From Escherichia phage RCS47, in sequence record NC_042128.1: DNA of 64,000 nucleotides. One strand, given 5' to 3'. The notes beneath the pieces are model-generated. The model was not told where the DNA came from. It made no database searches and saw nothing but the letters and a program-made list of their open reading frames with translations. The translations under genes were made by a program, and so were the position numbers. Shown piece by piece: positions 43,201 through 43,543 of the stretch; within the stretch, counting starts at the first letter, position 1, and each line of letters starts with the position of its first letter.

Positions 43201-43536
43201 GTATGCGGTGATTTTGCAGCGGTGATTGAAGCTGCCGGAGAAGGAGATGTCATCTTTTGCGATCCGCCGTATGAACCGCTTCCAAATACAGAGGGATTCA
43301 CGAACTATTCCGGTCATGACTTTAAGTTTGAAGAGCAAAAACGCCTGGTGTCTCTGTTGACGGATGCTCATCGTCGAGGTGCAAAGGTTCTCATTACTAA
43401 CAGTGGCGCGCCAAACATCAGAGAGCTTTATCATGACAGTGGCTTCAGAGTGGAACCTCTTTTTGCCAGACGTTCTGTGTCTTGTAAGGGGGACACTCGA
43501 GGTGTGGCTCATGACGTTTTGGGTATATTGCTCTAA
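40249..43536 (+). CDS. dmt: bifunctional DNA methyltransferase (N-terminal C5-cytosine MTase + C-terminal Dam-like N6-adenine MTase), Dmt-like, interrupted by an intein
   Basis: GTG start overlapping hrdC stop; C5-MTase motif I (CSGIEA), motif IV split as GGTP / CQAFSIAG around the intein, motif VI ENVPG; C-terminal Dam motifs FVGGGAV and DPPY; 1095 aa, 754 aa without the intein. Confidence 0.85.
40480..41502 (+). mobile_element. intein (341 aa) with LAGLIDADG homing-endonuclease domain
   Basis: N-terminal block [14 protein letters not shown], block B TNDHPF, two LAGLIDADG motifs ([21 protein letters not shown]), C-terminal ...NGAVVHN followed by Cys +1; excision restores [12 protein letters not shown]. 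Confidence 0.8.
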
Positions 43537-43543
43537 TAAATTT
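43527..43543 (+). promoter_or_regulatory. C1 operator-like 17-mer, perfect match (ATTGCTCTAATAAATTT), overlapping the dmt stop codon
   Basis: exact 17/17 match to the recalled consensus; putative -10 TAATAT at 43550-43555. Confidence 0.55.

Follow-up and report, generated by a model that had tools for sequence, protein, structure and literature searches.

Dispersed 17-mers in Escherichia phage RCS47 as probable operators of a P1-type C1 prophage repressor

Genes and 17-mer sites along the window

The window analysed here is a stretch of 64,000 nucleotides from Escherichia phage RCS47 (NC_042128.1), and its focal site is a 17-mer at 43527-43543 that overlaps the stop codon of dmt (TAA at 43534-43536; ORF 40249..43536), as an earlier sequence-only reading of the window had described. 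It is one of two overlapping 17-mers, and downstream of them lies a cargo of tRNA genes and ban that spans 44210..48089 (+):

43527..43543, plus strand: Obana (Op72a), a perfect consensus copy, identical to P1 68667-68683
43538..43554, minus strand: Obanb (Op72b), ATTACACTAATAAATTT, identical to P1 68678-68694
44210, plus strand: tRNA-Asn (ARAGORN, Rfam)
44288, plus strand: tRNA-Thr (ARAGORN, Rfam)
46364-46439, plus strand: tRNA with a CAU anticodon (ARAGORN, Rfam)
46719-48089, plus strand: ban, a DnaB-type helicase (Pfam DnaB and DnaB_C)

Shared parts of the window are 98-99% identical to P1. Around the focal site, identity to Escherichia phage P1 and to its close relatives JL22, SJ46 and P7 is 99.2-99.7%, and alignment with the P1 reference (AF234172) gives segments of 95-99% identity together with several indels and replaced modules. 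Judged by these alignments, the window is part of a mosaic P1-like phage-plasmid. At 19308-20685 unrelated DNA stands in place of the superimmunity (sim) genes of P1, with the module boundary lying exactly at the edge of the operator Op51, and positions 60350-64000 have no homology to their counterpart in P1 (hot, humD, phd-doc, pdcB and lpa; P1 85.4-90.7 kb), so that by sequence comparison this module, too, is replaced relative to P1. The repressor gene is not in the window, as had been stated before: neither c1 nor coi found a match in the window by tblastn below E = 0.8. C1 is 98.6-100% identical among P1, P7, SJ46 and JL22, and a cognate C1 for the operators of the window is assumed from such close relatives, all of which encode C1.

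The repeated 17-mer itself is well beyond chance. P1 C1 operators follow an asymmetric 17-bp consensus, ATTGCTCTAATAAATTT, of which P1 carries 22 (PMC8546580), and it was this consensus that the sequence-only reading had correctly named. On both strands of the 64-kb window, nine sites match ATTGCTCTAATAAATTT with at most three mismatches (20683+, 22344+, 38982+, 43527+, 43538-, 53958-, 57582+, 57631- and 59723+), against 0.32 expected by chance from 100 dinucleotide-preserving shuffles, in which the maximum count was two; the only perfect copy among them, with 0 mismatches, is the focal site. A tenth site, TATGCACTAATTAATTT at 54865-54881 on the minus strand, has four mismatches, so the ten full-length sites range from 0 to 4, and an eleventh, the remnant of Op55, conforms at positions 1-11 only. 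When a weight matrix was trained on six P1 operators outside the equivalent of the window (Oc1a-e and Oref), the ten full sites took ranks 1 to 10 in the window, and ten sites scored at least 15 bits against 0.59 expected under a first-order Markov null. Window hits between 13 and 15 bits were within chance (three seen against about 1.5 expected); those at 63645, 26419 and 35574 (13-14 bits), and one at 48079 (12.96 bits), were dismissed on that basis, and 63645 was also ruled out as Olpa (Op94), the window having no homology to P1 85.4-90.7 kb. Across positions 3-11 of the operator, information is 1.2-1.7 bits per position, except at position 6 (T or A, 0.9 bits).

All eleven sites coincide with features annotated as bound by 'phage repressor C1' in AF234172, including every copy that had been proposed as a C1 operator from sequence, and seven are identical to P1 base for base. 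The window and P1 share inter-site spacings of 49, 2141 and 3624 nt. The sites outside the ban locus, with the genes kilA and repL, are as follows:

20683..20699, plus strand: Oc4 (Op51), TCTGCTCTAATAAATTT, P1 48140-48156, upstream of c4 RNA, icd and ant (ImmI region)
22344..22360, plus strand: OrepL (Op53), identical to P1 49810-49826, controlling kilA-repL
22430-23230: KilA (Pfam)
23260-24105: repL
24109..24125, plus strand: Orlf (Op55) remnant, reduced to the 11-nt core ATTGCTCTAAT (24109-24119)
38982..38998, plus strand: Odmt (Op68), identical to P1 65145-65161, controlling uhr-hrdC-dmt
53958..53974, minus strand: O26 (Op82), identical to P1 78528-78544, between the divergent gene 26 and pmgL
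54865..54881, minus strand: Oppp (Op83), P1 79435-79451, between pmgM and pmgN
57582..57598, plus strand: OpmgRa (Op86a), identical to P1 82152-82168, containing the -35 (TTGCTC) of PpmgR
57631..57647, minus strand: OpmgRb (Op86b), identical to P1 82201-82217, just before pmgR (57662)
59723..59739, plus strand: OpmgT (Op88), ATTGCTCTAATAAATAT, P1 84293-84309, containing the -35 of P2pmgT

Most of the positions first listed from sequence alone stand, with amendments: the minus-strand copy placed at 57641 occupies 57631-57647, the degenerate copy at 53958 is present as Op82 and lies on the minus strand, the truncated copy is the Op55 remnant and starts at 24109 rather than 24110 (ATTGCTCTAAT followed by CTGGAG), and both Op72b and Op83 had been overlooked. 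Three of the sites depart from P1 by one or two bases. Op51 has TC at positions 1-2 where P1 has AA (AATGC...), and homology to P1 restarts at 20685, its position 3; C4 RNA with its a1/b1 targets follows just downstream at 20760-20966 (Rfam). Op83 begins with T where P1 has C (CATGC...) and scores 15.6 on the matrix, the ninth score in the window, while position 16 of Op88 is A in the window and C in P1 (...AATCT). Downstream of Op68 lie HrdC, of the RdgC family, and Dmt (Pfam). In P1 itself, some of these operators and promoters are annotated as predicted only, for example Op55, Op83, PpmgR and PpmgT.

At the Op55 site the difference from P1 is larger. In P1 the full operator reads ATTGCTCTAATTATAAC; the window keeps positions 1-11, where P1 homology stops (24119), and continues into unrelated DNA with tnpB, the rlfA operon of P1 being replaced by a tnpB/hok-sok segment:

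24257-25432: TnpB gene of IS605 OrfB type (Pfam), flanked by similar GC-rich hairpin sequences
25602-25775: sok antitoxin RNA (Rfam)

A simple insertion of an IS into Op55 was rejected, the second half of the operator and rlfA both being missing from the window. Because the plasmid pKBN10P04869B has the identical junction, we regard it as a lineage variant. The remnant scores 3.0 bits on the matrix against 9.7 for P1 Op55, and it is therefore probably no longer an operator.

Two further observations concern individual sites. At 54854-54870 (+) there is a degenerate 17-mer, CGTGAAATAATAAATTA, inverted and 11 nt from Op83, in the same geometry as Op72ab and Oc1ab and about as degenerate as the annotated Oc1b of P1 (ACGAAAATAATAGATTT); from this arrangement, Op83 might be weakly bivalent. 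Op86b is inverted and 49 nt downstream of Op86a, and between the two a strong hairpin is predicted at 57607-57634 (-13.4 kcal/mol, z = -5.1), and the U-run behind it reaches into the A-rich 3' end of Op86b. Two compensatory changes in the stem preserve this hairpin in Cronobacter phage JK004 (z = -3.7). By its structure the hairpin looks like an intrinsic terminator of the upstream ppp-pmgQ transcript, and this may be the reason that Op86b ends in AAAAAA rather than AAATTT.

Promoter overlap and the bivalent operator Oban

The promoter hexamers annotated in P1 are intact when carried over to the window, and by this transferred annotation every operator overlaps or abuts sigma-70 promoter hexamers. 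Around the operators, a scan with the generic sigma-70 consensus found few of the weak promoters already known, and promoter overlap is therefore read from the P1 annotation. The TTGCTC within the operator serves as the -35 at Op72a, Op86a and Op88, and TCTAAT as the -10 at Op53, which overlaps PkilA in this way at 22349-22354. At Op51 (TTGTAT) and Op68 (TTGTTT), the -35 hexamer begins at operator position 16 or 17, Op68 abutting that of Pdmt at 38998-39003. Six forward operators, Op51, Op53, Op68, Op86a, Op88 and the Oc1e of P1, have an extended cassette of about 30 nt in common that runs past the 17-mer into the promoter spacer and the -10 (...AAATnTTGnTTTTTA(A/T)(G/A)nC). Copies whose sequence is shared beyond the 17-mer lie in the window, all on the plus strand, at 20683-20715, 22344-22376, 38982-39014, 57582-57614 and 59723-59755.

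The hrdC-dmt operon has its operator among the sites first listed, Op68 at 38982; the focal copy belongs elsewhere. Op72a (43527-43543, +) and Op72b (43538-43554, minus strand) are inverted and offset by 11 nt, sharing 6 nt within a total of 28 bp, a geometry that matches Obanab and Oc1ab of P1, and the 28 bp are invariant among the window, P1 and P7. The -35 of P1ban (TTGCTC, 43528-43533) lies inside Op72a and its -10 (TAATAT, 43551-43556) at the edge of Op72b, while the -10 of P2ban is covered by Oban, within Op72a, according to the P1 annotation. Read from sequence, the focal site is half of a bivalent operator, Oban (Op72ab), rather than a feature marking the end of the hrdC-dmt operon. 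P1 and P7 annotations have Oban control ban and the tRNAs, and by analogy with them Oban, while overlapping the stop codon of dmt, would repress the tRNA/ban operon and not dmt; its place at the 3' end of dmt would reflect only that transcription of ban begins at this point.

Beyond Oban, positions 43599-43752 correspond to a region annotated 'dicF-like' in P1, with a terminator-like hairpin and T-run at its end (43717-43745), and many lambdoid phages match roughly 43599-43693 at 76-79% identity. Because Rfam gave no DicF match in this region at E values up to 1, we keep the label as a P1 annotation only.

The gene that ends within Oban has a peculiarity of its own. At 1095 aa, Dmt of the window (ORF 40249-43536) is longer than that of P1 (754 aa); the additional 341 aa are encoded at 40483-41505, where Pfam identifies Hint_2 and LAGLIDADG_3 domains. 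This insert begins with CFTAGH, ends with VVHN and stands exactly before the Cys of a GTP-C-QAFS block in the C5-cytosine methylase domain, a block that would correspond to motif IV, carrying the catalytic Cys. These sequence features give the insert the look of a canonical intein that contains a homing endonuclease of the LAGLIDADG type. Only three phage records, from two phages (OP279344.1 and vB_EcoM-Ro157c2YLVW), were found to have this insert, at 99-99.5% identity, and in them the protein is annotated plainly as Dmt; a search of the literature for inteins in Dmt of P1 found nothing relevant.

Conservation in relatives and alternative explanations

Comparison with P1 (AF234172) shows the same asymmetric 17-bp consensus, the same positions relative to orthologous genes and the same spacing, with seven of the 11 sites base-identical, including both halves of Oban; the differences are variants of one or two bases at Op51, Op83 and Op88, and the cut in Op55 after position 11. 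The ImmI specificity of P7 differs from that of P1. P7 (AF503408) has Op(ban[a]) and Op(ban[b]) annotated at the equivalent place, and its C1 is 98.6% identical to that of P1. A more distant comparison is afforded by JK004, whose C1 is 76% identical to P1 C1 and whose DNA is about 71% identical to the window in the aligned parts. Its operators are unannotated, and the P1 matrix finds about 21 sites in it that score at least 15 bits. At the orthologous Op68, Op86a, Op86b and Op88, 62 of 68 nucleotides (91%) are identical to the window, against 572 of 973 (59%) in the 150-nt flanks (Fisher p = 1e-8); Op68 retains 14 of 17 nucleotides, Op88 all 17, and Op86a and Op86b are also conserved, and the approximately 30-nt cassette is kept at Op88 and Op68. 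Where the window has an overlapping inverted pair at ban, JK004 differs in having two tandem direct copies 28 nt apart (29881+ and 29909+) upstream of gene_33, which we take to be its ban homologue from size (452 aa) and position. Phage D6 has the P1 gene repertoire and a C1 homologue of about 21% identity, and no site in it rose above chance, its top matrix score being 13.0. The motif therefore tracks repressor specificity and not the P1-like gene set.

Several other explanations for the repeats were weighed against this evidence. The sequence-only reading had itself allowed that the motif might be an element of late promoters, here those dependent on Lpa, rather than a repressor operator, and Op82, Op83, Op86 and Op88 do sit among morphogenetic genes, with Op82 about 25 nt from a bidirectional late promoter. 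However, the annotated late promoters of P1 (LPsit and LP26) carry AAATGACTA, a gap of 4 nt and TAGAAT, a different sequence from ATTGCTCTAATAAATTT, and the 17-mer does not contain the combination of a 9-bp box at -22 (AAATGACTA-like) with a TAGAAT-type -10. At Op82 the late-promoter box (53925-53933) adjoins the operator, the two being separate elements. The motif also occurs upstream of operons that are not late (c4-ant, kilA-repL and ban), and D6 has an lpa homologue but no motif. We consider the late-promoter explanation almost certainly wrong. An alternative is that the repeats are merely related sigma-70 promoter sequences, alike through shared ancestry or a high AT content and bound by no protein of their own. 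The operator does hold -35-like (TTGCTC) and -10-like (TAAT-rich) hexamers, and six forward copies do have a promoter-like cassette of about 30 nt in common, but the information across positions 3-11 far exceeds what a promoter needs. Moreover, the sites occur in both orientations relative to genes, some downstream of start sites (Op83, Op86b), they are conserved well above their flanks in JK004 and are missing from D6, whose C1 is divergent, and binding of C1 to the ATTGCTCTAATAAATTT consensus has been published (PMC8546580), which together leave this alternative very improbable.

Two breakpoints in P1 homology fall inside operators (Op51, at its position 3, and Op55, after its position 11), and these could be taken to mean that the 17-mers are mainly recombination joints between P1-like modules, with repression secondary. 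We hold out only the slimmest chance for that proposal: there are only two such junctions, one of which destroys the operator and lies beside a TnpB element that might alone account for the break, the other nine operators lie within collinear sequence, and a role as joints would add to repression rather than replace it. A broader version, drawn from those two junctions only (Op51 at a module boundary and Op55 halved beside the TnpB element), would have the C1 operator travel within the paralogous cassette of about 30 nt (ATTGCTCTAATAAATnTTGnTTTTTAAnnC), its invariant core acting as a joint for module exchange through which lineages rewire repressor targets; we regard this as speculative and rather unlikely.

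Against these, the identity and positional orthology with annotated P1 operators, the enrichment, the conservation and the co-occurrence with a P1-type C1 in relatives make it highly probable that the 17-mers are dispersed asymmetric operators of a P1-type C1 prophage repressor in a P1-like phage-plasmid. Points that count against this reading include the Op55 remnant, at only 3.0 bits, Op83, with its four mismatches to the consensus, and the absence of the repressor gene from the window.

A predicted C1 regulon in a P1-like phage-plasmid

In P1, C1 binds its operators and represses lytic functions such as RepL and Lpa, Lxc (Bof) raises the affinity of C1 by forming a ternary complex, and C1 is inactivated by Coi and by a complex of Ant1 and Ant2, the synthesis of Ant being restrained by c4 RNA (PMC8546580). 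Physical binding of C1 and repression in lysogens have been published for P1 itself, as cited in PMC8546580, and for RCS47 we infer C1 binding, occlusion of the promoters and the parts played by Lxc, Coi and Ant by carrying over this published P1 work. C1 would be supplied in trans from a part of the replicon outside the window and would bind each operator, with the corepressor Lxc (Bof) strengthening binding. Because the operators overlap or abut promoters, bound C1 would block RNA polymerase at these sigma-70 promoters in the lysogen, so that the operons would be silent. Those silenced would comprise c4-icd-ant (antirepressor), kilA-repL (lytic replication), hrdC-dmt, tRNA/ban and several early and morphogenetic operons, and Oban could hold two C1 molecules over both ban promoters. 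Inactivation of C1 by Coi or by Ant1/Ant2 would then lead to derepression.

P1 C1 binds as a monomer. The likeness to CI and the OR and OL operators of lambda is that a prophage repressor blocks early promoters through operators that overlap them; the operators of lambda are near-palindromic, dimer-bound and clustered at two loci, whereas those of P1 are asymmetric and spread across the genome, making up a regulon of some 22 sites that also involves a distinct corepressor, Lxc, and antirepressor proteins (PMC8546580).

What we describe is a textbook P1 C1 regulon in a close relative, already known and with no new mechanism, and the only mildly new points are the lineage-specific operator variants and the loss of Op55. 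The window would represent a P1-like element that keeps the classical C1 immunity regulon almost unchanged. For annotation, the operators mark the starts of early C1-repressed operons. P1-like phage-plasmids are common in Enterobacteriaceae, and recognising the operators helps to predict their superinfection immunity and how they respond to induction.
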